DNA from: a bacterium
GTDB taxonomy: Bacteria; Patescibacteriota; Minisyncoccia; Phycocordibacterales; UBA12088
DNA length: 64,000 bases
Direction of reading: 5' to 3'
Assembly (NCBI GenBank): GCA_003252295.1
Contig: QKEV01000015.1
Coordinates: 24,242-88,241 of the forward strand
Shown here piece by piece: positions 6,171-49,437 of the stretch. Positions within the stretch are counted from its first letter, which is position 1. Every line of letters begins with the position of its first letter. The notes below the pieces were generated by a model. The model saw nothing but the letters and a program-made list of their open reading frames with translations. It did not search any database and was not told the origin of the DNA. A program made the translations under genes and the position numbers.

Positions 6171-6342
6171 TGAATCTCCTCCTGTATATGTATGAATGAA
6201 ATTGAGAAATAACTGTATTTTGACTTACTATATAATACATTAAAATATGAATATGTCAATGTTACTCAGAGCACACAAGTGTTCATAAGGGAATCTGATT
6301 ATGGCTTAAAACAATGGTATACTGTTCTGATACAGTACGACC

Positions 6343-9684: not shown

Positions 9685-10074
9685 GTGAGTAAAGTAGAAA
9701 AAGAATTTATGTCAGAAAAAGTAGCAACACCTATAGTACCGAGTCTAACAAGACTCTTTCACATGGAAACAGCACAAAGTGCACCATTTAACTATTTGTA
9801 TAATAAGAAGCATAGTGGTGAGTTTATTGTGTGTGTTGAAGACACAGATCAAGCACGAAGCAAGAAAGAGTATGAAGATGATTTTACATACGACGTCGTA
9901 AGGGATGCAGTATGGGAGTATGATGAAGAAGTAGGGAAGGGGGATGTGCTCTGGCTACTGCGTGTTGCACTCTCTGGCAAGGAACGTTCCCCTGGCCCAT
10001 TCTTACTTGCTGAGTCACTTGGAAAAGAGGAAACACTGACATGTATTCAAGGAGCAAGAGTGGTGTATAGCTAG
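9685..10074 (+). CDS. GluRS-like 129-aa mini-protein, possibly a gltX remnant
   Basis: N-terminal part resembles the GluRS catalytic start (…FIVCVEDTDQARS compared with FxLRIEDTDxxRS, with a degenerate HIGH region). The C-terminus (LWLLRVALSGKERSPGPFLLAESLGKEETL) resembles the GluRS anticodon-domain tail. The entire middle is absent. Confidence 0.45.
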   Translation: MSKVEKEFMSEKVATPIVPSLTRLFHMETAQSAPFNYLYNKKHSGEFIVCVEDTDQARSKKEYEDDFTYDVVRDAVWEYDEEVGKGDVLWLLRVALSGKERSPGPFLLAESLGKEETLTCIQGARVVYS

Positions 10075-11722: not shown

Positions 11723-11750
11723 TCTAAGGTGAACGTACGTACACATAAAG

Positions 11751-11786
11751 ATGAGCAGTGTCATATGTACTCTGCTCATTTTTTTA
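11751..11786 (+). terminator. rho-independent terminator
   Basis: ATGAGCAG…CTGCTCAT hairpin followed by TTTTTTT. Confidence 0.75.
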
Positions 11787-12116
11787 ATGATAAAAAATAG
11801 TTACTAAATATTGTGCGACATTAAAACAGGGGATTAAAAGGGTAGAGCAGAGTAAAACGGAGTAGTGCACTACCTCTAAGGTATGGTGTGGACCTGTTAG
11901 AGGTGTGTCATAGACTGGTGGTGTGATACATGTATGTAGACGTATAAAATATTTTTAAAAAAAGTGATCAAAAATTTCAGTAAAATAATTTTGTATGATT
12001 TTTGTACTGTGGATAACTACAGCACGCTTAGACGAGATATTTGGCTGTATTGTCCACTTTAATTCGTTTTACATATATTGTGCGAACCAATGTATATGCT
12101 ACAATAGCACTACCCT

Positions 12117-13088
12117 ATGAAGATTCATCGTAGTTCAGAGCCAATAATTGAGCACATTATTCCTTTTCTTGACTACTGTGAGGTTGAGAAAGGTCTCTCA
12201 CAAAATACGCAGAAGAATTATCACCAGTACCTCCAACTTTTTACAAAGTGGCTTAGAGAGACTGGTAATGACTCCCTACTCCCCCACCAACTTGAGGGTA
12301 GTCATATTTGGGACTATCGACTATACCTCGCTCGTAAGTATAAGACGTCGAGGGGCGACTATCTTACAAAGAAATCTCAAAACTACTACCTCATTGCTCT
12401 TCGCGCATTACTAACCTACCTCACTGATCGTGACATCGAGACACTACCTCCATCAAAGGTGAAGTTGGCAAAGCAAAAGACTGAGGAGACGATTTCTTTT
12501 CTTGAGGTACGCGACATCGAGAAGATGCTTGCGATACCTGATACAACGACGTCGGTAGGTCTTCGCAATAGAGCTATCATGGAACTGTTCTTCTCGTCTG
12601 GTATGCGTATTTCTGAGCTCGTAGCACTCGATGTGGACCAGGTATCGTTTCTTGGTGATGGTAGTACCACGAGGACCTATGAGCTCTCCATTGTTGGTAA
12701 AGGAAGTCATGTGCGAACTATTTTTATCTCACCTCGTGCTGCTGAGTGGTTGCGTACCTACATCAAGAAAGAACGTCACGATGTACACAGGCCGCTCTTT
12801 ATTAACTTCCGTTCGAACTCAAAGAGTAGACGCCTTACTGCTCGTTCTATACAGAAGATGATCTCTCGCTATGCAATACTGGCTGGGCTCTCAAAGAAAG
12901 TGACGCCACACACCTTGCGACATACCTATGCTACTGACCTACTCTCCCACGGAGCGGACCTGAGGAGCGTACAAGAGCTTTTAGGTCACAAGAATGTCTC
13001 TACTACACAGATTTACACACATGTCACCAACAAACGTCTACGTGACATACATGAAAAGTTCCATGGTGGCAGTGATATGGAGCAGTAA
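12117..13088 (+). CDS. tyrosine site-specific recombinase, XerC/XerD family
   Basis: N-terminal SAM-like domain (…FLDYCEVEKGLSQNTQKNY…) and catalytic R…HxxR…Y motifs (GMRISEL…HTLRHTYATDLL…LGHKNVSTTQIYTHV). Confidence 0.85.
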   Translation: MKIHRSSEPIIEHIIPFLDYCEVEKGLSQNTQKNYHQYLQLFTKWLRETGNDSLLPHQLEGSHIWDYRLYLARKYKTSRGDYLTKKSQNYYLIALRALLTYLTDRDIETLPPSKVKLAKQKTEETISFLEVRDIEKMLAIPDTTTSVGLRNRAIMELFFSSGMRISELVALDVDQVSFLGDGSTTRTYELSIVGKGSHVRTIFISPRAAEWLRTYIKKERHDVHRPLFINFRSNSKSRRLTARSIQKMISRYAILAGLSKKVTPHTLRHTYATDLLSHGADLRSVQELLGHKNVSTTQIYTHVTNKRLRDIHEKFHGGSDMEQ

Positions 13089-27524: not shown

Positions 27525-30293
27525 CTATCCTATGCCATAGCGCATTTGAACTTGACGTTCAATTTCTGATAATGGTTTTCCATATTTTTGCAGTGACAGC
27601 TGCTTTATGTGTAGGGCACGTTCAGGACTCTTTGCGGGACCAGGTGGCACAAGAATCGAAAATGGTTTTTGTGGTACTCCGTTTGCGAGGATCTTTACAT
27701 AAGCATTACGGTTCTCAATATTCATGATATCTTGGGCAGCAAAAACTGGTTGGAACTGAGTCTGTAAAAATTCTGCATCTTCAGCACCGACACGGAATGT
27801 TGCAAGTGATCCGACGTTACCAAAAATTGAATCACGAATACCTGGGTCGATTTGTGCAATGAACTGGTGAGCTATATTGAGTGAAAGTTTATACTTTCTT
27901 GCCTCAGAAAGTATTGCTGAAATAGAGTCAGTGGTAATGTTTTGAAACTCATCAATGTAGAGATGAAATGCTGGAAGGTCGGTTGCAAGAGCATCAACTC
28001 GGGAAAGTGCAGCCATGAGTATTTTCCCAACGAGTACCATACCAAGAAGGTTTGCGTTTATCTCTCCCAACTTACCTTTACTCAGGTTGACGAGGAGTAT
28101 CTTTCGAGAATCCATCACTTCGCGCATGAGGAAGCTGCTCTTTTGTTGGGCAATGATCGGTCGCATGATGTCGTTTGCGGTGAAGATATCAAATTTATTA
28201 GTGATGTACGGCACCATGTTTTGGAGTGATGCTTCACCTTGTGCCTTTGTTGCAATTTCACGCCAGAATTGATTTACTATCGGATTTTTACTGCGTGCAA
28301 GTTTTACCTCACGGTACTTTGCATCTGCAAGTACTCGGGATATATCAAGCATGGTGCTTCCTGTACTTGGGTCCTCAAGTACGAGAGCAGTTGCATTTCT
28401 GAAGTACTGTTCAAATGCAGGTCCCATACTTTCAGGAGTTCCAGCGTAGAGTTTCTTGAATATAGAAAAAAGCTCGTTAATGACGAAGGTTTTTTGCTCT
28501 GGGTAACGTGCATCATACTCCAGCATGTTGAGACCGATGACGTGTTGTGTGTTTGTTGGATCAAAGTAGATGACATCGTCCATACGATGTTCAGGTATTG
28601 ATGCGAGTACATCTTCTATGTCTGAACCATGTGGGTCGATGAAGCATACTCCATCCCCTGCCTCGATATCCTGCTGTATGAGGTTTTTCATGAAGTATGT
28701 TTTACCAGTACCAGTTTGTCCTATGATGTAGAGATGACGCAAGCGGTCCTCTGGAGTGAGGTATGCTTTTGTTTCAACACCTCTAAAGTGGTTGCTGCCA
28801 AGCAGTGTGCCGCTCGTAGGTAAGCCAATAGGGGCCGGTGCTTCTGCCGTGCGACTTCGTTTCAATTGCGGTGTAGCTGCAAGCGAATGAGATGGGAAAT
28901 GTATGAGTCCAGTAAGTTCAGCAAGGGAAAGTGGCATACTCTGCTTGCTTGAGAATTCACGAAAGGTGTACTGATGTGCAAGCTTCCTTGCTTTGCTACC
29001 TGCCAAACGTTCAAACCGCATGCGGTTACCGTTTGCATTGTAGAACTGATTAAAGGAACTCTCTATATCTCGAAGTATAGTTTCGGATCGTTCCATGGTG
29101 GCGGCACTTGCCACTAGACGAATATTAACCTCAGGTATTGCTGTAGCAAGTTTTTTACGTATCTGCTCAACGAGTGTTTGGTCAACGTGTGGCGGTTCTT
29201 CAGGTGTTTCAGGTTTTTTTTGTGTTGAAAGTATGTCTTTAAAGGTATGTAGCACTTCAGCGGTAAAATCTTTCGGTGTTTCTTTTATTGCTTGAGAAAG
29301 TGATTTTCCTTTTTCGATTTTTTCTAGAACTTTTTGACAGTACTTTTTGTGTCCGCTGCCAACAGGGTTTACGATAAACTGTACAGCAGCTCCCTCTCCG
29401 ACGGTTGCTATTTTGGTGAGTGTGTTCACTAAGGTTGAGAGCGGGTCATGATCAAATTCCGTGTAGTCTTTGAGAGGAAGCAAGTAGGGGTGTTTGAGAG
29501 TTGCATACGAGACTGCATAGGCACCATCATGGAGGAACACATTGTAGTCGTTTGGGGCAAGGTGGGCACGTGCTCGGGGAAATGTTGAAAGCAGCTGTTT
29601 TTCAAACAGGTCCTCCTTGTCTCTCGGTACTGCAAGATAGAAGACAATATCTTCTCGCTCACCTGAAACAGCAACTTCAATGGAAAAGTAACGATCCCCT
29701 TTTGTCTTGAGTTCTGTGTCAACTGAAAACATGCCAAGGTAGAATTGCTCCATTACTGAGATGGTTTCCTTGAGTGTCTTCTGCCCCTCTTCAGGTGTTG
29801 GTTCTGGGAGTGTTACCTCAAAGAGTGTCATATTGAGAACATTCCAGAGCGGTGTTTTTTCCTTGATCTGTGGTGTGTCGTGGTATCTTGCAACGTACTG
29901 CACGAGCGCACGATGAAAATCATCTTCTAGGTGGGGATTTTGCATACGCTCGGCAACGGTGAGTGCATTCTTTATTCCCTTTTCCTCAAGTATTCCCAAA
30001 AGCTCTTCCATCACTTGATCATCCTTGTCTGGACTGAGTTCAAAATCACGAAGGATTGAATCAACCTCATTGTTACTTACTGCATGTGATTCATGGAGCA
30101 CCTCATGACTTGGCTGTTCTTTGTAGTTTTGGAGTTCTTCATAGATGAGTGCATTCTTTTCTGGAGTGTGACCCGCAGTCTTAAGCTGACGCTCTTTCTC
30201 AGCGACTTGGGCACGCAAAAATGCAATCTCCTCAGCAGGTGATGTAAAACGCTTATCACCACGCTCGGGATGTTCTCCGAACGGTTCTGGCAT
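27525..30293 (-). CDS. soluble TraD/TraG/VirD4-like (type IV coupling protein family) P-loop ATPase, 922 aa
   Basis: Walker A IIGQTGTGKTYF, …FIDPHG…, Walker B HLYIDEFQN, and a C-terminal …SLNIAHQFIAQ… block, matching the T4CP/TrwB architecture. There are no N-terminal TM helices and there is a roughly 480-aa N-terminal extension. Confidence 0.55.
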   Translation of the reverse strand: MPEPFGEHPERGDKRFTSPAEEIAFLRAQVAEKERQLKTAGHTPEKNALIYEELQNYKEQPSHEVLHESHAVSNNEVDSILRDFELSPDKDDQVMEELLGILEEKGIKNALTVAERMQNPHLEDDFHRALVQYVARYHDTPQIKEKTPLWNVLNMTLFEVTLPEPTPEEGQKTLKETISVMEQFYLGMFSVDTELKTKGDRYFSIEVAVSGEREDIVFYLAVPRDKEDLFEKQLLSTFPRARAHLAPNDYNVFLHDGAYAVSYATLKHPYLLPLKDYTEFDHDPLSTLVNTLTKIATVGEGAAVQFIVNPVGSGHKKYCQKVLEKIEKGKSLSQAIKETPKDFTAEVLHTFKDILSTQKKPETPEEPPHVDQTLVEQIRKKLATAIPEVNIRLVASAATMERSETILRDIESSFNQFYNANGNRMRFERLAGSKARKLAHQYTFREFSSKQSMPLSLAELTGLIHFPSHSLAATPQLKRSRTAEAPAPIGLPTSGTLLGSNHFRGVETKAYLTPEDRLRHLYIIGQTGTGKTYFMKNLIQQDIEAGDGVCFIDPHGSDIEDVLASIPEHRMDDVIYFDPTNTQHVIGLNMLEYDARYPEQKTFVINELFSIFKKLYAGTPESMGPAFEQYFRNATALVLEDPSTGSTMLDISRVLADAKYREVKLARSKNPIVNQFWREIATKAQGEASLQNMVPYITNKFDIFTANDIMRPIIAQQKSSFLMREVMDSRKILLVNLSKGKLGEINANLLGMVLVGKILMAALSRVDALATDLPAFHLYIDEFQNITTDSISAILSEARKYKLSLNIAHQFIAQIDPGIRDSIFGNVGSLATFRVGAEDAEFLQTQFQPVFAAQDIMNIENRNAYVKILANGVPQKPFSILVPPGPAKSPERALHIKQLSLQKYGKPLSEIERQVQMRYGIG

Positions 30294-40482: not shown

Positions 40483-40790
40483 GTGTTTTCTCCATACATT
40501 TTTTTGAGTTAAACTACAATTTATACTTCAAGTTTCGCATGTTGGTTGCCAACCAGTATGGGCAGGTCCCCCCTTCCCTGTGTATTAACGAACAAACCAG
40601 AGGCCATACTACCCGGTATGACTCTATTATGTCAAACAAAACGTGTGTTTTTATGTTGCAGAATATGCCGTGAACATGTACAATCATCCCTAGTTTCGAA
40701 AGAAACAATACGTTCTGCGCCGTGTCCTTCGTGGCCATACATAACTTTAGTGAAGTGGGAGTAAAGAAGGAGTTGCGTAGAAACCAGCAT

Positions 40791-40863
40791 TCCGCGGTAG
40801 CTCAGCTGGTAGAGCGATCGGCTGTTAACCGATTGGTCGCAGGTTCGAGTCCTGCCCGCGGAG
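40791..40863 (+). tRNA. tRNA-Asn (anticodon GTT)
   Basis: Cloverleaf read by hand: acceptor TCCGCGG/CCGCGGA; D-arm GCTC-AGCTGGTA-GAGC; anticodon arm ATCGG-CTGTTAA-CCGAT; variable loop TGGTC; T-arm GCAGG-TTCGAGT-CCTGC; discriminator G. CCA is not encoded. Confidence 0.9.
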
Positions 40864-40867
40864 CAAC

Positions 40868-40916
40868 TAGAAAAGCACTATTCTTAGTGCTTTTCTGCGT
40901 ATAAGGGGAACGGGAA
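40868..40916 (+). repeat. copy 1 of a 49-bp direct repeat (contains terminator hairpin AAAAGCACTATTCTTAGTGCTTTT)
   Basis: TAGAAAAGCACTATTCTTAGTGCTTTTCTGCGTATAAGGGGAACGGGAA recurs at 45903-45951 with 3 mismatches. Confidence 0.85.
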
Positions 40917-40940
40917 TAGAACTTTTGTTATACTTTGCGT

Positions 40941-41489
40941 ATGAAAGCACCAAATATTGAAACAAACTCTTACCTAATAAGACCCTTTAAAACTAGCGAT
41001 GCGGAACTATGGCAGAAGTGGGATATAGACCCAGAAGTTCAGGCATTTATGCCTGAACCATTTAATGAAGTGCAAGATATTGAAGAGCAATACAAATACA
41101 TTGAAGAATGTGAAGCTGATGAAGAAGGGTGCTACTGGTCAATTGAGACTAAAAACGGAACTACTATCGGTACGGTGGCACTTACAGAGATCAATGAGTA
41201 TCACAAAATTGCCAACCTTGGTATAGTGATCGGTGATAAAAACCACTGGGGCAAGGGAGTTGCAACTGAGGTAATTACTGCCATAGTTGCACACGCATTT
41301 GAACAACTACATCTTTGCAGGATCAGTGCTGAAGTTGAAGAAGGGAACGTGGGAATGATAAAGGTTTTTAAAAAGGTTGGGTTTAAACAAGATGGACTTT
41401 TGGAATCAGCACGTCTGAAGAATACAAAACGTATCAATGTCCACCATTTTGGTTTTGTTAAACCTTCATGCAAAGTTAAATCAAAATAA
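40941..41489 (+). CDS. GNAT-family N-acetyltransferase (RimJ/RimL-like)
   Basis: …IGTVALTEINEYHKIANLGIVIGDKNHWGKGVATEVITAIVAHAFEQL… acetyl-CoA binding motifs. ATG at 40941; the ORF-track start is TTG at 40935. Confidence 0.8.
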   Translation: MKAPNIETNSYLIRPFKTSDAELWQKWDIDPEVQAFMPEPFNEVQDIEEQYKYIEECEADEEGCYWSIETKNGTTIGTVALTEINEYHKIANLGIVIGDKNHWGKGVATEVITAIVAHAFEQLHLCRISAEVEEGNVGMIKVFKKVGFKQDGLLESARLKNTKRINVHHFGFVKPSCKVKSK

Positions 41490-41590
41490 TCAGATTACTT
41501 TTCCCTCCATCGCCCGAATGAACATCAACTGATTGTACATGCCCGTCATGTACTTTCCGTCACCCAGAATGCTTATAATAGCGTCATGTT

Positions 41591-41632
41591 CGCGGAGCTT
41601 GATAAAGCACGTTCAGAAATGAACGTGCTTTT
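41591..41632 (+). repeat. tRNA-3'-end-like element (CGCGGAGCTTGATAAA) plus hairpin AAAGCACGTTC-AGAAAT-GAACGTGCTTT
   Basis: Same GCGGAGC core as the tRNA-Asn 3' end, again followed by a hairpin and T-run. GCGGAGCTTGATAAA recurs at 44592-44606. Confidence 0.6.
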
Positions 41633-41646
41633 GGTATAGTTTGGGT

Positions 41647-42441
41647 ATGGAAGCGATACTTATAACAATAGGACTATTTGTCAGAACCATACAACTACTA
41701 TTACCTGGTTTCTCAAAAATTGATGTTGCAAATATCTTTATTGCAATCGTTGCTGGATTATTTCTTGCGGGCAAGGCAGGAGCAATATTAGCTTTTCCAT
41801 TTGGTTTTGCCCTAATTATTGCTTTATTTTATAAAAATAAAATTTTACCAACAATTACCGAAGGGACTTTATTTTTATACGCTGTAGTTGCAACATATAT
41901 TGCTGTCAGGGACATTGAGTCATTTTCAGCACTATCTAGCACTTATTTAATATTGCTTTTGTTTCTTTCACTTTACGTACTTGTGGGTTTTTACCTTTGT
42001 GTAACAAAAACGAAAGTGCCATCCTTTTTGCAAATCATTTTAATGGTATTTTTTCTTTCAAATGCAATTTATATCGCGTACCAAAGTAGTCTAGTGTTTC
42101 TCATTACTGATAGTTCACCTTTAACACATTTATTGATTGGATATTTTGGTCTCTATTTTATAAGTCACATTTTGTATATCCTCGCCTTAATCCCACTTCC
42201 TGGGAAACATCAATCTTTTAAAGATAGGATGAAAGAGGTGAGAAAACACGCTCAATTCCTAGAAAAGAAATATTCGGATAAAGATATCAATATTAAAAAT
42301 ACTCTAGGTCTTGTTGCTGTAATTATATTGGCCTTCTCCTATAATTATTTCTACAATGATTGGATTACTAGTGTTGTATTACTCCTTATTATAGGTGGCT
42401 ACTTAGCCGCACCAAATAATTTTAAGTTATTAAGCAAATAA
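41647..42441 (+). CDS. polytopic membrane protein, hypothetical
   Basis: About 7 predicted TM helices. No confident family match. Confidence 0.5.
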   Translation: MEAILITIGLFVRTIQLLLPGFSKIDVANIFIAIVAGLFLAGKAGAILAFPFGFALIIALFYKNKILPTITEGTLFLYAVVATYIAVRDIESFSALSSTYLILLLFLSLYVLVGFYLCVTKTKVPSFLQIILMVFFLSNAIYIAYQSSLVFLITDSSPLTHLLIGYFGLYFISHILYILALIPLPGKHQSFKDRMKEVRKHAQFLEKKYSDKDINIKNTLGLVAVIILAFSYNYFYNDWITSVVLLLIIGGYLAAPNNFKLLSK

Positions 42442-42477
42442 TTTATTTTACTCAATTCAACCTCTATCTTTTTCCAA

Positions 42478-42549
42478 TTCAGAGTTCTGAACTTGTCCAG
42501 CACGGGAGCAATAAGAAAAAACAGTATCGTCTTGATACTGTTTTTTCTT
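42478..42549 (+). repeat. island repeat unit R1 (TTCAGAGTTCTGAACTTGTCCAGCACGGGAGCAAT) plus perfect 16-bp-arm hairpin
   Basis: AGTTCtGAACT palindrome followed by a degenerate tRNA 3' end (CGGGAGCAA), then AAGAAAAAACAGTATC-GTCTT-GATACTGTTTTTTCTT. Homologous units occur at 43297-43332 and 49373-49404. Confidence 0.75.
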
Positions 42550-42680
42550 ATCTCGCTATCATGGTCACGGACTCGAACCTATGGACCACATTTTCAAGGA
42601 GTGGAGCGACCATGAAAATGTAGGATCTCGACCATAGGGAGAGGCGAGTCCTGCTTGTGCGTCGAAACGAAGTGAAGGAG

Positions 42681-42723
42681 TGCCCGCGGAGCAATTGACA
42701 ATACCACTATCTAGTGGTATTGT
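42681..42723 (+). promoter_or_regulatory. tRNA-3'-end copy (TGCCCGCGGAGCAA) fused to a sigma70-like promoter TTGACA-N17-TATTGT with an embedded operator palindrome
   Basis: -35 TTGACA at 42695-42700, -10 TATTGT at 42718-42723, 17-nt spacer. Perfect IR AATACCACT-ATCT-AGTGGTATT at 42700-42721. The AAGGAGG SD and ATG at 42756 follow. Confidence 0.7.
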
Positions 42724-42755
42724 TTGTTTAGTTAGCCTTTTGAAAAGGAGGAAGG

Positions 42756-43172
42756 ATGGAAACAATATATGCGATACTAAAAACATTAAAAAGTTTTGGG
42801 TCAGCAAAAGATGTTCCTTTTAGAAAAAGGTCACCTCAGGAAATCATCAGCTCGGGAGTATTTAGTGGATGTTCTGATGTAGCACTTGCTTTTGCGTATC
42901 TGTGCAAGAGTTCAGAGATAAGGGTTCATATTGTTGATACTTTTGACAAAATAATGTTCTCCAAAACCCTAGGTATGGAAGGTATAACAGGGCATGTGTA
43001 TTGTCAGGTATTTAATTCCGATGACACCTGGGTCATGGTTGACCCAACAGTAGGTGCCGTTGATGTTGATATCTGCTCGGATGGACGTGTCCCTATTGTG
43101 TCATACCTAGACAACAGTAAGCTCCTTTCATATGAAGAACTGTGTTTTATAAAAAGTACCTTTCAGGACTAG
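42756..43172 (+). CDS. transglutaminase-like (Cys-His-Asp) core mini-protein, 138 aa
   Basis: Cys in SGCSDVALAFAYLCK, His in GHVYCQVF and Asp in WVMVDPT, in the order and spacing of the transglutaminase-like cysteine peptidase core. Confidence 0.5.
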   Translation: METIYAILKTLKSFGSAKDVPFRKRSPQEIISSGVFSGCSDVALAFAYLCKSSEIRVHIVDTFDKIMFSKTLGMEGITGHVYCQVFNSDDTWVMVDPTVGAVDVDICSDGRVPIVSYLDNSKLLSYEELCFIKSTFQD

Positions 43173-43173
43173 C

Positions 43174-43215
43174 CCGCCCACAACGAAAACCGTTGGAGGG
43201 CGGTTTTCTTTTTAT
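43174..43215 (+). terminator. rho-independent terminator
   Basis: CCGCCCACAACG…CGTTGGAGGGCGG hairpin followed by TTTTCTTTTTAT. Confidence 0.7.
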
Positions 43216-43296
43216 GCAAAGGAGTTCTGAACTACTCTATTTTTAAATAACTCAAAAAACATACCTTGTTTCAATTCACGTTGTATTCTCTTCCAG

Positions 43297-43360
43297 TTCA
43301 CAGTTCTGAACTTGTCCAGTACGGGGAGCAATTGACAATACCACTATCTAGTGGTATTGT
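43297..43360 (+). promoter_or_regulatory. island repeat unit R3 plus promoter/operator module (second copy)
   Basis: TTCACAGTTCTGAACTTGTCCAGTACGGGGAGCAAT, then TTGACA (43332-43337), N17 containing AATACCACT-ATCT-AGTGGTATT, then TATTGT (43355-43360). Near-identical to 42681-42723. A further AGTTCTGAACT lies at 43213-43223. Confidence 0.75.
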
Positions 43361-43428
43361 TTTGTTTGGCTAAAGTCTGTTCCTACGGTAATTGAATCAC
43401 AAATCATTTAGCATGCTTGGAGGAATAA

Positions 43429-43938
43429 ATGAAAAGTATAGAATATACTGAAATTGCTGGTCATGATAATCTGAATAAGTTTTTAAACGACAGAAATAAA
43501 ATTATCTTAGAATGCAACGATGCGATTCGTAAAGTTGCTAACAAGTTAATTATCAAAGCGAAAGATGAAAGGATTACACTCTGCCGGTTACCTTTGAAAG
43601 CAGTGTTGTTTCGCACAAAAGAAGACCGTGAAGCTAAACGTAATAACACTTTCATCAACTATGGTGAGTATCATGTGGATGAACTTGAACTGTATTACGT
43701 GGAATTTTTTGTACACAACGAAGCAAGAGTTGCTGGCAATATAGGACTCATTATTTCTGGAAAACAGCCAGATCGAACTACAGGTGATTTTAGTTATATT
43801 TGTGGTTTCGAGGATTTTGATTACGTTGATTTGTCATGGGGAAAGAACTGGTTCTTTTTAAACAAAAATGACTATTTTACGTTTAAGGAAGTAGTCTTGA
43901 ATTTTAAAAAGGAACTACCCTCTTGCGTAGTGCAGTAA
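43429..43938 (+). CDS. hypothetical protein (169 aa), island cargo
   Basis: GGAGG SD. No recognisable family. Confidence 0.45.
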   Translation: MKSIEYTEIAGHDNLNKFLNDRNKIILECNDAIRKVANKLIIKAKDERITLCRLPLKAVLFRTKEDREAKRNNTFINYGEYHVDELELYYVEFFVHNEARVAGNIGLIISGKQPDRTTGDFSYICGFEDFDYVDLSWGKNWFFLNKNDYFTFKEVVLNFKKELPSCVVQ

Positions 43939-43952
43939 AATACGTACAAAAA

Positions 43953-43990
43953 ACCTGTCTAGTAGCCTGTCTCTGGACAGGTTACTTTTT
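43953..43990 (+). terminator. rho-independent terminator
   Basis: ACCTGTC…GACAGGT hairpin followed by TACTTTTTAT. Confidence 0.6.
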
Positions 43991-44015
43991 ATATACACGT
44001 TCGAACATCGTCCCA

Positions 44016-44056
44016 CGCTCGGAGCAATTGACAATACAGTAGTAAAATGACATTGT
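44016..44056 (+). promoter_or_regulatory. island unit R4: CGCTCGGAGCAAT plus TTGACA and a degenerate -10
   Basis: Same GGAGCAATTGACAATAC junction as R2 and R3. The downstream -10 region has diverged (CATTGT/TTGTTA). Confidence 0.5.
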
Positions 44057-44125
44057 TAATTTTGGATAATTTCTGTTTTTTACTATGTAATAAATTTAAA
44101 AAACTTTTGAAAACATGAGGTTGTT

Positions 44126-44296
44126 ATGAATCGACGAAGTGACAAGTTTTGTGCTCCACCACCAACATCTCGTTCCTATCCAGGTAAGGGTAGTTATCAG
44201 ATGGAATGTTTAAGGCGCAACGCAATAATCAAACTTCAGTTTGTTGTTGTAGCAGTTGTCATAGTAGCTATTTTGGTTACCCTGCCTTTTTTGTAA
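44126..44296 (+). CDS. 56-aa small protein with C-terminal TM helix (MNRRSDKFCAPPPTSRSYPGKGSYQMECLRRNAIIKLQFVVVAVVIVAILVTLPFL)
   Basis: Below the ORF cutoff. GAGG SD 5 nt upstream. Tail-anchored topology. Confidence 0.35.
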   Translation: MNRRSDKFCAPPPTSRSYPGKGSYQMECLRRNAIIKLQFVVVAVVIVAILVTLPFL

Positions 44297-44528
44297 GTTT
44301 TGGTCGTTTGTATGTTTGTAGACAGAAACTATTAAGCCGCTTAGGAAGATGTAATCCAAGCGGCTTTAATTTGTAAAATATAACTGAATAATGGGGTCTG
44401 ACCCCGTTTCATAAAAGGTGACTGACCCCTTTTTTCCTTGCTGTTTCTCTCTAACAAGGACCAGGAAAATTTTCTGGCCCTTTTGCGTTACAAGTGTCTT
44501 AGGGGTAAACCGCTTTGTTTAATCAATG

Positions 44529-44584
44529 AATGAACATGCCATGCCTGCCCGGCACCCTTTGTGGTGTCTCGGGGCATGTTCATT
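44529..44584. repeat. perfect 12-bp-arm inverted repeat (AATGAACATGCC…GGCATGTTCATT) with a 32-nt GC-rich loop
   Basis: Lies in the 350-nt non-coding stretch 44297-44647, which also holds hairpins at 44334-44366 and 44393-44436. The tRNA-3'-like TGCGGAGCTTGATAAA follows at 44591. Confidence 0.6.
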
Positions 44585-44647
44585 GGATGCTGCGGAGCTT
44601 GATAAAAAAACATATAAAATAAATGTTATTGGTGTATTATAGGATAT

Positions 44648-44776
44648 ATGAAATTTGAAGAAGTGCATTACCAAGAGCCGGTTCCAGAAATGGAAAGTTT
44701 TGAAAAAGTTGACGACTTTCTTGAAAATGAAGAAGGGGTCCTTGCAACTCTTCGTAAAAAAACAAAAAAGAGGTGA
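44648..44776 (+). CDS. 42-aa acidic small protein (MKFEEVHYQEPVPEMESFEKVDDFLENEEGVLATLRKKTKKR)
   Basis: Protein-like frame. Its stop TGA sits inside the GAGGTGA SD of the next ORF, consistent with translational coupling. Preferred over the overlapping K-rich frame that the ORF track starts at 44655. Confidence 0.35.
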   Translation: MKFEEVHYQEPVPEMESFEKVDDFLENEEGVLATLRKKTKKR

Positions 44777-44780
44777 TAAC

Positions 44781-44948
44781 TTGGAAGCAGTAAATGTAGA
44801 ACACAAAGAAGATTTAGTTCTTGGTTTTGTTGGACCTCTAACTGATGAATTTTCTTCACAGATGCAACCGCACAATGCAGAAAATTTTGGCTGCGTAGAC
44901 TGTATTGATTGTGTATGTGATGTAGGTCCTTGCGATTGCGACACTTAA
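44781..44948 (+). CDS. 55-aa Cys/Asp-rich peptide (…SQMQPHNAENFGCVDCIDCVCDVGPCDCDT), candidate modified-peptide precursor or metal-binding peptide
   Basis: TTG start 5 nt after the GAGGTG SD. Six Cys alternating with Asp in the last 18 residues, preceded by a leader-like region. Confidence 0.4.
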   Translation: MEAVNVEHKEDLVLGFVGPLTDEFSSQMQPHNAENFGCVDCIDCVCDVGPCDCDT

Positions 44949-45032
44949 GTCGCTTAAAAGTTAATCTCAACATACTGGCCATTTTCTTTGGCCAGTATTA
45001 TTTTATAATCAAATAAACATTTTAAAAAGATA

Positions 45033-45722
45033 ATGAGCAAGGTCATATTTGGCACTAATAAAGACAAAGATTTCAGAAACCATCTTATACAGCTGAGATG
45101 GCGAAATAAAACTGGTTTTACGTATTCTCCAGCAGAAAGTGAGTACTTTGATTCTCTGGAGAGATGTAAGGATGAGCTTGAGCAATGGAAGCTGTTTGAA
45201 GATTACTCACGTGAGTATTATTTGGAGGACAATAAACAGACAATTAATTCTGTTTTAAGTTATTTTCAAACATTGTGGAATAATGTTGAAGAAGTGTATG
45301 TTAAAAAAATGGAAGAAATGCACAATAAAGTATTTCCTTACAAAACAGTTTATGGTTATTTGTCTACGTCGCCAGGTGGCTGGGGCTTCAATTTAAATAA
45401 AAAAAACCCTTGGTTTGCATGTCCCAATAAAAAGAATGACAAGTTCCTAAAAGTTGCAATGCATGAACTCATGCATGGTTTTTTTATTGAATATTTTAGA
45501 GATGACTTAAAAGAAAAATACCGTTTAACTGACAACAAACTTTGGGATATTCAAGAGTCATTAACGGTGCTTCTAAATATTGAATTAGGTGATATTCTGC
45601 CTCACAAAGACTTGGGGTATCCACAACACAAAGAGTTACGCGAAGAAGTTAAGTCGGTATGGTTAGAGACAAGTGATATTGATGAGGTCCTGCGACGTGC
45701 AAGTCAATTTACTAAAGGGTAA
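45033..45722 (+). CDS. HExxH-motif protein, putative zinc metallopeptidase-like (229 aa)
   Basis: AMHELMHGFF is the only recognisable motif. No signal peptide. An A8 homopolymer lies in the CDS at 45399-45406. Confidence 0.5.
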   Translation: MSKVIFGTNKDKDFRNHLIQLRWRNKTGFTYSPAESEYFDSLERCKDELEQWKLFEDYSREYYLEDNKQTINSVLSYFQTLWNNVEEVYVKKMEEMHNKVFPYKTVYGYLSTSPGGWGFNLNKKNPWFACPNKKNDKFLKVAMHELMHGFFIEYFRDDLKEKYRLTDNKLWDIQESLTVLLNIELGDILPHKDLGYPQHKELREEVKSVWLETSDIDEVLRRASQFTKG

Positions 45723-45902
45723 TACCTTTGACTATTTTGTTTATACAAACGAAATGTGTTTGTAATTATTAAAAACTAATTTTAGTTGTTCTCTAACGAT
45801 AAATTTTGTTGTTGTAATGCTGATGCAACAGGACTTCTTTCCAGTTTTCTTTCCCATTCTACCCAGTTCACGTTTATAAAGGTGCTTAGGTGTTGGAGCC
45901 CT

Positions 45903-45951
45903 TAGAAAAGCACTATTCTTAGTGCTTTTCTGCGTATAGGGGGAACAGGAT
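45903..45951 (+). repeat. copy 2 of the 49-bp direct repeat
   Basis: 46 of 49 positions identical to 40868-40916. Preceded by a GGAGCC tRNA-end-like remnant. Confidence 0.85.
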
Positions 45952-46059
45952 TTGAACCATACTAAATACTATATAGTAAATATAACAATATTATGCTAAA
46001 ACACAGGTAGAAAAATAAATGACCACAATACCTAATATCAAATATGGAGGTTGTTGCAT

Positions 46060-47232
46060 ATGCAAACTGATCAAGTTTTGTCGGCACTGTACGAGTGTTT
46101 TCGTGGGAAGGGTTGGAGGTTATATACCTGCACTACATGTAATAATCTCATTTTCTCAAAAAATGCGAAAACACTTTGTTGGAGAAGGAAAGAATGTGGG
46201 CAAGAAAAAAAGTTTTTGTCATTACCAAAACAGAAAGCGATGGTAGTTCCGGGGCAAATCAAGGATGTAATAGAAAAAGCTGCTACAAAAAAGGGTTACA
46301 ATCGCGTGGAAAGTATTCCACTTACCGCTAACCATGGGAAAACAGATTTAATTATTGCTGGTGTACAGCTGTATAACGATGTAATTCATGGGAAAGCAAT
46401 ACAATCTTGCTTTCCTGACCGTTGTGTAATATCTCAACCGTGTGTACGGATGCAGTTTGCTGATAAGGTTGGTAAAGTAGATGGTATTTCGACCGCATTT
46501 GTAAACACATGTACCGAGCACGTTGGAGCTACGGTTGTCGAACATGCATTTGCCGTGGATTTTTGGCTAGACGTGCTTTCATGCCTTGGTTTGCATGTGT
46601 GTGATGTGTCGCTGGTATATCGTACAAAGAAACGAAATTGGGGGACAGGTGATTTTCTTTCCCATGATTTATTTTTTATGTATGGTGATTTAGAACTGGG
46701 TGATGCTTCCTATGCAGTTGTCCCAACTAGGTGTGCAGGTGGTTCAGGGGTATTGCAGATTAGTGACGTAGGCTTTGGGGTAGAACGAATCGGATGGGCA
46801 ATCAATAAAACTGATACGTACTATGACGTGTTACAACCATGGGACATGCAGTATACGACAGAAGTTAACGATCTGTACCGTACACTTACGTTACTTGCTA
46901 TGACCGGTGTTAAACCTGGACCAAAAGGTGCAGGGTTACAGTTTCGTCGCCTTGCAAAACAATTATACCTTCTGACTCCAAACATCTTTTCATTTGGTCT
47001 TGTAAGTTACTATTTTCGGTATTGGGGTTCGTTTACGACATGTCTTTGTGGATTAGAAGTTTCTTCTTCTGTAATTTCTCGCGAGTATGATAGGTTGCGT
47101 AACAATGGGATCGCAAGTAACAATAATTGGCCTGCCCCAAAAAATGATGAGAGTACAGAAGAATACCTTGAAAGAATGGTGTATAGTAAAATAGTAACTC
47201 CCAGTGAGTTGCGTAAGATGTACACACCATGA
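46060..47232 (+). CDS. alanyl-tRNA-synthetase catalytic-core paralog (class IIc fold) with N-terminal Cys-rich zinc-ribbon-like segment; lacks tRNA-recognition, editing and C-Ala domains
   Basis: Collinear with the AlaRS N-domain. VIEKAATKKGYNRVESIPL…DLIIAGVQ compares with F…KGH.V.SS.LVP.NDPTLLFTNAGM. SQPCVRMQF compares with TSQ.C.RAGG. ISDVGFGVERIGWAINKTDTYYDVL compares with VDTGMGLERLAAVLQ…SNYD.DLF (motif 3). About 390 aa against about 870 aa for AlaRS. ATG at 46060 with a GGAGG SD. Confidence 0.6.
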   Translation: MQTDQVLSALYECFRGKGWRLYTCTTCNNLIFSKNAKTLCWRRKECGQEKKFLSLPKQKAMVVPGQIKDVIEKAATKKGYNRVESIPLTANHGKTDLIIAGVQLYNDVIHGKAIQSCFPDRCVISQPCVRMQFADKVGKVDGISTAFVNTCTEHVGATVVEHAFAVDFWLDVLSCLGLHVCDVSLVYRTKKRNWGTGDFLSHDLFFMYGDLELGDASYAVVPTRCAGGSGVLQISDVGFGVERIGWAINKTDTYYDVLQPWDMQYTTEVNDLYRTLTLLAMTGVKPGPKGAGLQFRRLAKQLYLLTPNIFSFGLVSYYFRYWGSFTTCLCGLEVSSSVISREYDRLRNNGIASNNNWPAPKNDESTEEYLERMVYSKIVTPSELRKMYTP

Positions 47233-47918
47233 AAAAACAAAAACTAAAGCTATACTTGTCTGGGGGTGGTGACGAAACACAGTCATTCGCCCTCGACAAG
47301 CTTTTTTTTACTTCAATTCCTGAAAATGGAAAGGTTTTGTATATACCTATAGCTTTACGTGGTCACAAACTCTTTTTAAATGCACATATGTGGTTTTCTG
47401 GTGTAGTAAAGAAACATGGTCGTGATGATATACAGGTTGTGCGTTGTGATGATGTTGACACAATAACAATTAAGAAAATATCTCTGTATGATGCTGTGTA
47501 TATAGGTGGAGGAAATACTTGGTCACTTATAAAAGAAGTATCTGAAGCTGGTTTTGATGAAGTGTTAAAAAAATATATAACAGAAGGAGGGGTGGTATAC
47601 GGCGGGAGTGCTGGTGCAATTCTTCTTGGCACTTGTATTGATACAAGTGATGATGAAAATGTTGTGAAATGGAATAATATAAATGGATTAGATCTTATTT
47701 CTCCTTACTCAGTGGTTTGTCACTATACGGAAGTCATGGAGAAACGATATTCTGGTTGGGCAAACAAACATGGACCTATTATTTGCATTCCTGAAAATGC
47801 AGGGATGTACACAGAAGGTAACAGTTTGGTAAATTGTGGTAACGGTATGATAACCGTTTTTGATACTTCTGGAAAAAAAATAGAATACTCTGCAAATGAG
47901 TGCTTAATGTTCGAATAA
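47229..47918 (+). CDS. peptidase S51 family (dipeptidase E / cyanophycinase-like)
   Basis: VYIGGGNTWSLI, GGSAGAILL (Ser nucleophile) and a downstream His, collinear with PepE. Start overlaps the AlaRS-like stop (ATGA). Confidence 0.75.
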   Translation: MKKQKLKLYLSGGGDETQSFALDKLFFTSIPENGKVLYIPIALRGHKLFLNAHMWFSGVVKKHGRDDIQVVRCDDVDTITIKKISLYDAVYIGGGNTWSLIKEVSEAGFDEVLKKYITEGGVVYGGSAGAILLGTCIDTSDDENVVKWNNINGLDLISPYSVVCHYTEVMEKRYSGWANKHGPIICIPENAGMYTEGNSLVNCGNGMITVFDTSGKKIEYSANECLMFE

Positions 47919-47923
47919 ACTGT

Positions 47924-47952
47924 AAAAGCACTTCGGGTATCGAAGTGCTTTT
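47924..47952. terminator. bidirectional terminator
   Basis: AAAAGCACTTCG-GGTAT-CGAAGTGCTTTT between the convergent S51 gene and the SAM-synthetase gene. Confidence 0.8.
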
Positions 47953-47968
47953 ATTGTCAAACCAGTTC

Positions 47969-49225
47969 TCAGTAAAGGATGCATTTACCTTCAATGATTT
48001 CCTGAGAAAGAACAGAAAGGTTTTTCATAGTATCAATGTAAATATCTTTCACTGTATCTTCGTGCCTCCCGAGTAGTTTGGGTCTGTTTATTTCTATAGA
48101 AGCCATCCAAGGATCATCCAGGTTTCTGCCCATCTGGGATGTGATAAACACCTTACATTCTGTGTTTATTGCATTGAATACATTGTCCGCAATTCTTTGT
48201 GCTGCTGCTGTGTACAGTTTTCCAACATGGTAAATAGGATTTTTGCCACAACATGCCTCCATACTCATGTTTCTTGTAAACGGGATAATGCCGTTATGTC
48301 GGTTCCCTCGACCTACCACACCTTCGTCACCGCTTTCGATGGCACTTCCTATGGCAGTTAAGTAAAAATCTTGACGAGCCGCATTATCACGAGTATTTAA
48401 CTCAACTGAGTAGTTGTAGTACGGATACATTGTCTTTGCGTGTCCCAGTATTATCTCTGAAACCTCTTGAAGAGATTTGCGATAAAAAACCAGGGAGTTT
48501 GTATACGCAGCGACAAATGGTATACATGCGGTGATTTTTACGTTTCTGCCATTTCTTACTGACATAACCTTGATGTCAGTACCAACATAAGGATGCTCCT
48601 TTTTAAAACCCTTAAATTCGTTGAGTTGGTTTTCGATAGCAATGGTAAGTAGTTCTATTTCGCTTAACGGAGCATACGCCACAGCAGTTGAAGTGTCGTT
48701 GGAGCGGAGATCATTGTCGTGATAACGGGCAAATTTTATGTTCGGTACTGTAAAAAAATGCCCGCGTTCATTTTTTGTATTACCGTCCTTGCTATGTACA
48801 ACCCCCGGTCCGGGTGCCATATGAGTGTTGTCAATAATTGTTAGCCATTGTTCAACGTCAAGGAGCGGCATTACAGCTTTAAAGTGTTTCTTTGCAGCAT
48901 TGCTCGCGATATCAAGATAAGGTACCTCGCGTCCTTCAAAGTCTTTAGTAAAACGACAGTTCAGGTATAGGTGTATCGGACGTTCCATAAATCCTTTACC
49001 AAACTGAACGTGTGAGGCTCCTCCAGCAAGTGCAATTTTGTCCACCATGTGTCGTAACACCACACCGTGTTCATTAAGAGTGTATTGTGAATATGCCTGT
49101 GAAATTTTTTCAGCAATTGTGTCACAGAGTGTGTCTGGGTGACCTATTCCCTTTCGTTCCACCACCTCAAACGGTGTTTCTGAGCAAAGTGTGTTTTGTT
49201 GAGCAATAACTGTAAAATTGTTCAT
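47969..49225 (-). CDS. S-adenosylmethionine synthetase, archaeal type (MAT)
   Basis: ERKGIGHPDTLCDTIAE N-terminal motif and overall collinearity with the archaeal AdoMet synthetase family, not bacterial MetK. Confidence 0.8.
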   Translation of the reverse strand: MNNFTVIAQQNTLCSETPFEVVERKGIGHPDTLCDTIAEKISQAYSQYTLNEHGVVLRHMVDKIALAGGASHVQFGKGFMERPIHLYLNCRFTKDFEGREVPYLDIASNAAKKHFKAVMPLLDVEQWLTIIDNTHMAPGPGVVHSKDGNTKNERGHFFTVPNIKFARYHDNDLRSNDTSTAVAYAPLSEIELLTIAIENQLNEFKGFKKEHPYVGTDIKVMSVRNGRNVKITACIPFVAAYTNSLVFYRKSLQEVSEIILGHAKTMYPYYNYSVELNTRDNAARQDFYLTAIGSAIESGDEGVVGRGNRHNGIIPFTRNMSMEACCGKNPIYHVGKLYTAAAQRIADNVFNAINTECKVFITSQMGRNLDDPWMASIEINRPKLLGRHEDTVKDIYIDTMKNLSVLSQEIIEGKCILY

Positions 49226-49372
49226 CGTATCTCTCCTTTAGGTTTCCTTGATTGTGAGCTTCTCTTTTCTGCACCTGTAATAACACGTTTATTTTACTAT
49301 TTCAATAGTAGAGCTTTGTCTTCGGTAAGTGCAATACATAAACTTTGTATATTTTTTTGCACTGTCTTTCAC

Positions 49373-49437
49373 TTCACAGTTCTGAACTTGTCCAAGAGTG
49401 GGAGTAAAGAGATTAAGCACCAGAAATGGTGCTTTTT
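49373..49437 (+). repeat. island repeat unit R5 (…TTCACAGTTCTGAACTTGTCCAAGAGTGGGAG…) plus hairpin AGCACCAGAAATGGTGCTTTTT
   Basis: Third full copy of the AGTTCTGAACTTGTCCA element with a degenerate tRNA-end segment, again followed by a terminator-like hairpin. Confidence 0.7.

Follow-up and report, generated by a model that had tools for sequence, protein, structure and literature searches.

A repeated promoter-like module with a palindromic centre as the probable upstream edge of gene cassettes stacked behind a patescibacterial tRNA-Asn gene

What does a perfect palindrome mean when it lies between the -35 and -10 hexamers of a promoter-like module that recurs in front of unrelated genes? The question is raised by a stretch of 64,000 nucleotides (the window hereafter: positions 24,242 to 88,241 of the forward strand of contig QKEV01000015.1, assembly GCA_003252295.1) from a bacterium of the Patescibacteriota (Minisyncoccia; Phycocordibacterales; UBA12088), in which two copies of TTGACA-N17-TATTGT stand in front of small genes downstream of a tRNA-Asn gene. 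A first-pass annotation took the module for a reused promoter with the operator of a repressor between its hexamers. Judged from the sequence and its comparisons, the module is probably, by a rather modest degree of confidence, the upstream edge of cassettes that would have been stacked behind tRNA-Asn by recombination at the tRNA 3′-end (core GGAGCAA); it would combine a promoter with a recombination scar, and its palindrome would be a hairpin of the terminator type.

The module lies in an 8.6-kb low-GC (guanine plus cytosine) island, the interval 40864-49400 between tRNA-Asn and lemA (start 49572). Most 1-kb bins of the island have a GC fraction of 0.33-0.38, two distal ones reach 0.41-0.42, and outside the island the value is ~0.43. 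The rest of the window includes genes for ribosomal proteins, the cell wall and replication, which score under equivalog cut-offs; the closest named homologue of its LemA is from Candidatus Moranbacteria (66% identity). When the intergenic regions were read and aligned, the core GGAGC of the tRNA 3′-end was seen at nine sites, all on the + strand and all intergenic: a at 40860 (the tRNA itself), h at 41594, b at 42505, c at 42688, d at 43325, e at 44021, i at 44594, f at 45895 and g at 49401. These nine junction repeats, running from tRNA-Asn to lemA, divide the island into eight mostly single-gene units (Table 1). Of the 20 occurrences of the longer form GGAGCAA in the window, five fall within 3.2 kb here, all on the same strand and always between genes. 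The cargo comprises a GNAT protein, a membrane protein, ORFans of 138 and 169 aa, small open reading frames (ORFs), an HExxH-like protein, an AlaRS-like protein, a peptidase S51 and an archaeal-type methionine adenosyltransferase. An Rfam search across the island at a permissive threshold returned nothing apart from the tRNA.

Table 1. Features of the tRNA-Asn to lemA interval, in map order (RBS, ribosome-binding site; D2, the 55-nt repeat family of the left arms; terminators are predictions)
Feature	Coordinates	Strand	Description
tRNA-Asn(GTT)	40791..40864	+	ARAGORN; Rfam tRNA 72.7 bits; array anchor; 3′-end ...TGCCCGCGGAGCA, source of the repeated core
Junction a	40860..40934	+	Core GGAGCAA; terminator hairpin AGAAAAGCACTA-TTCT-TAGTGCTTTTCT 40869-40896, -18 kcal/mol; TATACT 40929-40934, 6 nt 5′ of ATG 40941 (GNAT gene, Pfam); 63-nt copy, 89% identical, at 45895-45957
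Junction h	41594..41640	+	GCGGAGC-TTGATA; hairpin AAAGCACGTTCA-GAAA-TGAACGTGCTTT 41604-41631; TGG-TATAGT 41635-41640, 6 nt 5′ of membrane-protein ATG 41647; scan match TTCAGA-17-TATAGT with TG
Junction b	42452..42551	+	55-nt left arm D2 containing AGTTCTGAACT; core GGAGCAAT 42505-42512; 18-bp perfect hairpin 42511-42551, -24.6 kcal/mol
Gene-less 183-nt insert	42513..42695	+	Interrupts d-type junction; direct repeat GGAGCAAT on both sides; inverted tRNA T-arm copy GGACTCGAACCT 42569-42580; ends in 14-nt exact tRNA 3′-end 42681-42694
Junction c (copy 1)	42688..42725	+	Core GGAGCAA; TTGACA 42695-42700; palindrome 42698-42723; TG-extended TATTGT 42718-42723; RNA hairpin -18.4 kcal/mol, then TTGTTTAGTT
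Cassette gene 3	42756..43172	+	138 aa ORFan; weak transglutaminase-core match; RBS AAGGAGG; own terminator 43185-43208
Junction d (copy 2), uninterrupted module	43271..43362	+	Left arm D2 with GTTCTGAAC...GTCC (T-loop-like dyad); core GGAGCAA 43325-43331; TTGACA 43332-43337; palindrome 43335-43360; TG-extended TATTGT 43355-43360
Cassette gene 4	43429..43938	+	169 aa ORFan; unrelated to gene 3; RBS GGAGG; terminator 43961-43986
Junction e (diverged third copy)	43994..44077	+	Left arm ACACGTTCGAACATCGTCC...; core CGGAGCAA 44020-44027; TTGACA 44028-44033; non-palindromic 17-nt spacer; CATTGT 44051-44056; no hairpin (z = -0.5)
56-aa ORF behind junction e	44126-44296	+	
Junction i	44594..44647	+	GCGGAGC-TTGATA; degenerate hairpin; TATTAT 44635-44640, 7 nt 5′ of ATG 44648 (42-aa ORF)
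Junction f	45863..45957	+	D2-like start CCAGTTCAC; core GGAGCC; hairpin a copy; before AlaRS-like / peptidase S51 genes
Junction g, island distal end	49347..49434	+	D2 left arm; core GGAGTAA 49401-49407; hairpin AAGCACCA-GAAA-TGGTGCTT 49415-49434; 3′ of it the lemA promoter TTGACA-17-TATATA, then lemA (49572)

The repetition of the module is real and extends beyond the hexamers: GGAGCAATTGACAATACCACTATCTAGTGGTATTGTTT is present at 42688-42725 and again at 43325-43362, identical at 38 of 38 nt, with a 17-nt spacer and a -10 box extended by TG. The first-pass annotation had described the spacer as a perfect palindrome. A dyad is indeed there, but its size had been misjudged, the perfect palindrome being one of 26 bp (12-2-12; ACAATACCACTA-TC-TAGTGGTATTGT) that exceeds the 17-nt spacer and takes in the final three bases of the -35 box and the entire -10 box. 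The pattern AATACCACT-N4-AGTGGTATT matches twice in the window, where shuffles predict 0.03 matches, and a third copy of the dyad was not found in the window. The two dyads stand in direct orientation around one cassette, with a 637-bp unit between the copies. At 44028, where a diverged third copy had been placed, the -35 box TTGACA and the 17-nt spacing hold but the dyad does not; the spacer is non-palindromic and the -10 box reads CATTGT. Compared with c and d, this copy e (44021-44077) is identical over GGAGCAATTGACAATAC (17/17) and over ATTGTT (6/6); the central 14 nt agree at 4 of 14 positions, with the length kept exactly. The module does lie directly 3′ of a tRNA-end repeat, as had been claimed: copy 1 follows a 14-nt exact tRNA-Asn 3′-end, TGCCCGCGGAGCAA, and copies 2 and 3 are preceded by just the 7-8-nt core (C)GGAGCAA. 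A second palindrome, AGTTC-N-GAACT, had been reported upstream, with one of its four positions in error (43223, not 43213). It was found as AGTTC-T-GAACT (AGTTCTGAACT) at 42483, 43223, 43302 and 49378, four sites against 0.05 expected. These sites are not independent, since three of the four lie within one 55-nt repeat family (D2); this repeat is common to the left arms of b, d and g and contains AGTTCTGAACT, so that the second palindrome is part of the left arm.

The promoter half of the earlier claim is the firmer one. The best -35/-10 matches of the window that lie directly 5′ of gene starts (at 6259, 14700, 16196, 40635 and 56980) show that this organism uses canonical -35/-10 promoters, and the module (TTGACA-17-TATTGT with TG, a 10/12 match) is level in hexamers, spacing and TG with the best promoter-like sites of the window; copy e (TTGACA-17-CATTGT) scores 9/12. 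A strong predicted terminator precedes each cassette gene (42511-42551 before gene 3, 43185-43208 before gene 4 and 43961-43986 before the 56-aa ORF), the three copies of the module lie 26-63 nt 5′ of an RBS and ATG in these terminator-insulated genes, and a promoter scan found no second promoter-like site ahead of the RBS in the intergenic regions of the three downstream genes. The two larger downstream proteins are unrelated: a search of 5.8 billion proteins returned no homologues of the ORFans of cassettes 3 and 4 besides themselves, and no relation between the two. Exact-protein look-ups gave no record for cassette 3 or for the membrane protein, and found cassette 4 in the source strain only. 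In the Logan contigs of SRR7216773, which end at the repeats, no alternative junctions were seen. The predicted function of the module as the promoter of the cassette genes is thus well supported in silico, and it would be a constitutive promoter of the sigma-70 type fused to a recombination scar.

As a separate observation, -10 boxes were seen 6-11 nt 5′ of an ATG without a Shine-Dalgarno sequence at 40929-40943, 41632-41649, 44635-44650 and 12100-12119 (TATACT-6-ATG, TGgTATAGT-6-ATG, TATTAT-7-ATG and TACAAT-11-ATG). This suggests that some genes of the window have leaderless or near-leaderless mRNAs, unlike cassettes 3-5, which have leaders and a GGAGG RBS.

The junctions share more than their core. 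A strong hairpin (-14 to -25 kcal/mol) comes right after it at a, b, c, d, f, g and h, and three types of right arm are used repeatedly, namely a/f (63 nt, 89% identical), h/i and c/d/e. On the left side, GTTC-N18-GGAGY has three matches in the window, all of them at junctions (d, e and g), against 0.61 expected. With a 5-nt expansion, the left arm resembles the T-loop and 3′ half of the tRNA: junction e reads GTTCGA[ACATC]GTCC...CGGAGCAA, against GTTCGAGTCC...CGGAGCAA in the tRNA. Junctions b and c together amount to a d-type junction interrupted by the GGAGCAAT-flanked 183-nt insert, which places the exchange point at the core, 5′ of the palindrome.

The same design recurs in related genomes with other sequences. 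In L133 (GCA_964607655.1), whose LemA is 71% identical to that of the window, a tRNA-Asn gene also lies 5′ of lemA, the 8 kb between them being filled by unrelated genes. Four matches to GTTC-N18-GGAGY were found in L133 (0.41 expected), three of them on the tRNA strand within the tRNA-lemA interval. The GTTC-N18-GGAGC junctions of this interval, at 2723, 6054 and 8836, are followed 5-9 nt on by TTGACG-16-TACAGT, TTGACA-16-TATAAT (12/12) and ATGACA-16-TGaTATAGT, and delimit two single-gene units of 560 and 543 bp. Blocks are reused here as well: positions 8248 and 9804 carry copies of a 47-nt lemA-promoter block (83% identical), and positions 6523 and 9373 carry copies of a block made up of terminator plus junction (90% identical). 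In L132 (LemA also 71% identical), GGAGCAACAGT-TTGACA-16-TATAAT lies 5′ of lemA. L152, a metagenome contig found via the tRNA 3′ half, has the order tRNA-Asn, a-type hairpin, ~190-nt insert, 232-aa gene, junction and next gene, the junction between the two genes being GTTCGTACATCC...GGCGGAGCAAAGT-TTGACA-17-TAAATA. In all three loci a promoter thus begins 0-9 nt after the same type of junction, and in none of their junction promoters is the spacer palindromic. In L133 and L152, arrays of the same type hold different genes, and their gene content is wholly unlike that of the island of the window. A sequence model derived from the junctions of L133 and L152 only ranked window junctions e (E ~0.1) and i (E ~0.9) first and second window-wide; that the top two ranks in 128 kb should fall by chance on two of nine predefined 40-nt junction sites is unlikely. 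Over all loci compared, GGAGC followed by a promoter is not enriched (17/3086), most of these loci being from unrelated organisms, and GTTC-N18-GGAGY is not enriched in 120 mostly unrelated metagenome loci, which makes the pattern clade-specific. In two further LemA relatives, L128 and L130, the upstream side was found to have neither a tRNA nor synteny.

Two features of the tRNA-Asn genes in these loci were seen in passing. Group I introns (Rfam RF00028) interrupt the gene at L229:3568-3813, L152:1-185, L174:5228-5478 and L186:1207-1419, with a score of 80.8 bits in L229 and scores just under the gathering score in the other three; because of these introns the four tRNA-Asn genes were not found by ARAGORN, while that of the window is intron-free. 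In addition, a gene-less segment of ~150-190 nt follows the tRNA-Asn gene or a copy of the tRNA end in five organisms (42513-42695 in the window, L152:232-425, L174, L186 and L229). Within it lie a terminator hairpin, an inverted copy of the T-arm, AGGACTCGAAC, and, after a further 70-90 nt, a direct partial tRNA 3′-end. The segment could be a small element or RNA that is conserved, or else an integration scar that recurs.

If the palindrome is not an operator, what is it? The palindrome of c and d occupies the position at which a hairpin is located in the other hairpin junctions and behind the real tRNA, and it is laid out like the local terminators: an outer arm rich in A comes first, then a short core of G+C with an effective loop of 4 nt, and last an outer arm rich in T; other local terminators are likewise perfect palindromes of 12-18 bp. 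Folding gave -18.4/-19.4 kcal/mol for the c/d palindrome against -18 kcal/mol for the tRNA's own terminator. The stem has four G-C pairs out of 12 and the T-run after it is interrupted (TTGTTTAG / TTTTGTTTGG); a scan flagged it as terminator-like. What it follows is no more than a tRNA-end relic, with another predicted terminator upstream. Between c/d and the hairpins of a/f and g, four of the 12 pairs have changed on both sides and none on one side only (91.7% of cells pair, against 31-74% in slid controls). Two nucleotides separate the arms of the dyad in c/d, and four do so in a and g. The length of this centre is immaterial to an RNA hairpin but not to a dimer of fixed spacing, and the difference favours a hairpin over an operator. 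Furthermore, the non-consensus bases of the -10 box (TATTGT, not TATAAT) are those that pair with the ACAATA starting inside TTGACA, and copy e retains ATTGT despite having lost the dyad, which suggests that the palindromic form is ancestral in the c/d/e subfamily. The first-pass annotation had itself raised the possibility that the dyad does no more than belong to the repeated end of a mobile element, and this comes close to what is seen.

The proposed mechanism would run as follows. Cassettes would recombine at the last bases of tRNA-Asn, each displacing older units towards lemA. A full junction would consist of a left arm imitating the T-loop and 3′ half of the tRNA (with 5 extra nt; GTTC-N18-GGAGC), the core, and the right arm of the next cassette. 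The right arm of a newly landed cassette would become the trailer of the tRNA, its hairpin ending the tRNA transcript and its promoter driving the cassette gene. In c and d these two functions would overlap: the -35 box TTGACA lies 2 nt past the core, the hairpin would fill the 17-nt spacer and its 3′ arm would serve as the TG-extended -10 box (TGGTATTGT). The palindrome may have been inherited from, or modelled on, the terminator of tRNA-Asn, and would now act at most as an insulator against read-through. The recombinase is presumed to act in trans.

Several observations weigh against this account. When scored directly against the 3′ half of the resident tRNA, the left arms do no better than random GGAGC sites, their tRNA likeness being seen only when the 5-nt expansion of the T-loop is permitted; the tRNA-derived core is merely 7-8 nt long, copy c excepted; and the E-values from the external model (0.1 and 0.9) are weak. 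No integrase or integrase fragment was found in the island (40864-49400), nor was an integrase in the L133 interval, and the sole recombinase in the 64 kb is an Xer-like gene (12117-13088) 28 kb off among housekeeping genes, whose product reaches 104 bits on the integron-integrase model against a cut-off of 265. As regards the hairpin, only three distinct sequences underlie the homology of c/d to hairpin a, and a one-arm shuffle test gave only p ~0.03. Both hairpin copies now lie 3′ of another strong terminator, which makes a present role as terminator redundant. Finally, c and d are identical at 38 of 38 positions while the adjoining repeat arms are ~82% identical, a degree of identity more easily obtained from a protein-binding site than from a hairpin or spacer; gene conversion would fit as well.

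That last point, like the redundancy of the hairpin as a terminator, speaks for a classical repressor-controlled promoter, in which a dimeric regulator encoded elsewhere would bind the 26-bp dyad and co-regulate cassette genes 3 and 4, with base-by-base constraint on the site. The geometry is that of the textbook, a perfect dyad over the spacer and -10 box of a near-consensus promoter. Such a regulator was, however, not found: as had been stated for the island, no regulator is encoded there at the Pfam/NCBIfam level, and the same holds for the rest of the window, in which no helix-turn-helix or other regulator was detected in any ORF of at least 45 aa, small ORFs included. Besides the lack of a third dyad in the window, a search of the GTDB species representatives gave four matches only, in unrelated phyla and all with palindromic centres, which were taken as chance, while core plus hexamers gave no match in the JGI metagenomes; in viral contigs a scan with 15 specified bases gave chance matches only and the 18-base cross-genome junction pattern none. 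Moreover, copy e retains the promoter without the dyad, the junction promoters of L133, L132 and L152 are dyad-free, and the hairpins of a and g differ from c/d in half-site spacing (4 versus 2 nt) and at four arm positions, which a fixed dimer would not tolerate. An operator is thus weakly supported, a hairpin relic is more likely than a repressor site, and control of genes 3 and 4 by a repressor at this dyad is considered unlikely. A half-site, ACAATAGCACTA, just 5′ of the Xer-like gene was also considered as an operator and rejected (it is a TACAAT -10 box without a dyad).

Two other explanations were given still less weight. The palindrome might be the binding or crossover site of a recombinase, either of the serine-invertase/resolvase kind (12-2-12) or Xer/dif-like (10-6-10, with the Xer-like gene at 12117-13088 as the candidate), through which the 637-bp unit would be excised or shuffled. 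A 12-2-12 dyad with an asymmetric TC centre has the geometry of hix, gix and res site I, and the c/d dyad fits it; the two identical direct copies flank one cassette, their identity extends over 38 nt, and an Xer-family recombinase is encoded in the window. Yet the homology breakpoints fall at GGAGCAAT, 3-10 nt 5′ of the palindrome and not at its centre, and the hairpins after b, g and h are unrelated or diverged, only core and left arm being common. Add to this that the window yielded no serine recombinase, that the Xer-like gene lies in its distant housekeeping neighbourhood, and that the junction has no long attC-like hairpin fold (DNA folding of d, e and L133:6054 gave only local hairpins or nothing), and a recombinase site becomes quite improbable. 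Similarly improbable is that the module has no function, being a decaying duplicate of a tRNA end plus terminator left by old integrations, with a fortuitous promoter match. By our own estimate ~1.5 sites with a perfect -35 box and an acceptable -10 box are expected by chance in 128 kb, the island has 27 promoter-like sites against 28 expected in shuffles, and c and d, as one duplication, leave two independent sequences (c/d and e). Chance, however, does not readily place all three copies at their distances from an RBS and ATG in insulated genes; what e has preserved is precisely the flanks with the hexamers and the length of the spacer, around a randomised centre (~7e-5 by estimate if mismatches were random), and independent junctions in L133, L132 and L152 have consensus promoters at an equal offset from the core. 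Ends of the IS200/IS605 type, miniature inverted-repeat transposable elements and attC sites were rejected as candidates, the left and right hairpins being different, with neither terminal inverted repeats around the cassettes nor an attC fold.

To return to cassettes stacked behind tRNA-Asn, the known systems closest to it are tRNA-linked islands that grow by serial site-specific integration; what is new here is that the promoter is built in and that the units are of single genes. In the model proposed for the islands and tycheposons of Prochlorococcus, each newer insertion displaces the older ones further from the tRNA; partial tRNAs separate the elements and are scattered through the islands (bioRxiv 10.1101/2020.12.28.424599). 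The ssrA islands of Dehalococcoides (PMC3146451) are another example of tRNA-linked serial integration. The present island resembles tRNA-linked islands in starting at a tRNA 3′-end, in its lower GC and lineage-specific cargo, and in having direct repeats of the tRNA 3′-end as boundaries. It differs from them in that its units are of 0.2-1.3 kb and mostly of one gene (promoter, gene, terminator, left arm), it holds no integrase, its left arms form a conserved family of their own (GTTC-N18-GGAGC, the tRNA with 5 extra nt) and the promoter abuts the core. Putative mobile promoters, as reported by Matus-Garcia et al. (PMC3488235, PMC3575422), likewise place a similar promoter sequence 5′ of non-homologous genes within one genome; here, unlike there, a vehicle can be identified, the promoter being in a recombination junction, and the design recurs elsewhere with other sequences. 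Operators of the TetR, LacI and phage-repressor types share with the module an operator-size dyad across the spacer and -10 box of a near-consensus promoter, and differ in that here the window gave neither regulator nor second operator, that the sister copy does without the dyad, and that the dyad resembles a nearby terminator hairpin with altered centre length.

Integron cassettes, for their part, are mostly promoterless, and superintegrons carry near-identical attC repeats (VCRs, the Vibrio cholerae repeats). With superintegron arrays the island shares small, co-oriented, ORFan-rich single-gene units and ~100-nt repeats that are more alike than the genes they flank; it is unlike integrons in having no intI, attI or Pc and no R/L boxes, and in its tRNA anchor and per-unit promoter. 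A bolder proposal, held tentatively and with more doubt than belief, is that the tRNA-Asn-lemA interval of this patescibacterial clade is a new integron-like capture locus of self-promoted single-gene cassettes. Its 3′ site, a GTTCGAAC-type dyad-N14-GGAGC, would mimic the T-loop and 3′ half of the tRNA, insertion would proceed serially by a recombinase in trans (possibly the Xer-like one), and the 38-nt c/d sequence would both terminate the tRNA and start the cassette.

Bacteria of the candidate phyla radiation (Patescibacteria) have tiny genomes with few recognisable mobile elements or regulators, and how they gain and express genes is poorly understood. If the proposed account is true, a tRNA-anchored stack of self-promoted single-gene cassettes would be a compact route of gene acquisition, used in at least three genomes of one clade for unrelated cargo, and GTTC-N18-GGAGC followed by TTGACA-N17-TATAAT would provide search motifs for such loci and for their recombinase. 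The case also counsels caution in annotation: a perfect dyad between -35 and -10 boxes is insufficient for calling an operator where the terminator hairpin of a scar is to be expected.

Some further features of the island deserve mention. Four consecutive terminator-like hairpins, gene-free between them, lie at 44300-44500 (AAGCCGCTT...AAGCGGCTT; GGGGTC..GACCCC; another ending in GACCCC and a T-run; and GGACCAGG..CCTGGCCC) and may be the remains of cassettes that are without their genes. The distal part of the island (44648-49225) has an odd gene set: a 42-aa ORF for an acidic/basic peptide, an HExxH-like protein of 229 aa, a 393-aa protein with only the N-terminal catalytic-core signature of AlaRS, the peptidase S51 and, in convergent orientation, the archaeal-type methionine adenosyltransferase gene. 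These genes may form a peptide- or aminoacyl-modifying cluster. The 14-mer AGTGGGAGTAAAGA, at 40754-40767 (36 nt 5′ of the tRNA) and at 49397-49410 (in junction g), brackets the tRNA and the island over 8.6 kb. Since chance alone would give ~0.2 repeats of this kind in the 10-kb region, the pair may be a coincidence; alternatively, tRNA-Asn itself may lie inside a larger inserted segment.

Outside the island, a non-coding gap of 400 nt (11723-12116) without an Rfam match lies 5′ of the Xer-like gene, and a 922-aa ATPase similar to HerA/VirD4/TraD (27525-30293, - strand) is encoded amid mreB, murA and priA, with no other conjugation genes nearby. A 129-aa ORF at 9685-10074 combines the first ~60 residues of the catalytic domain of a class I Glu/Gln-tRNA synthetase with the end of the anticodon-binding domain, and is either a truncated or internally deleted remnant of gltX or a frameshifted gene.

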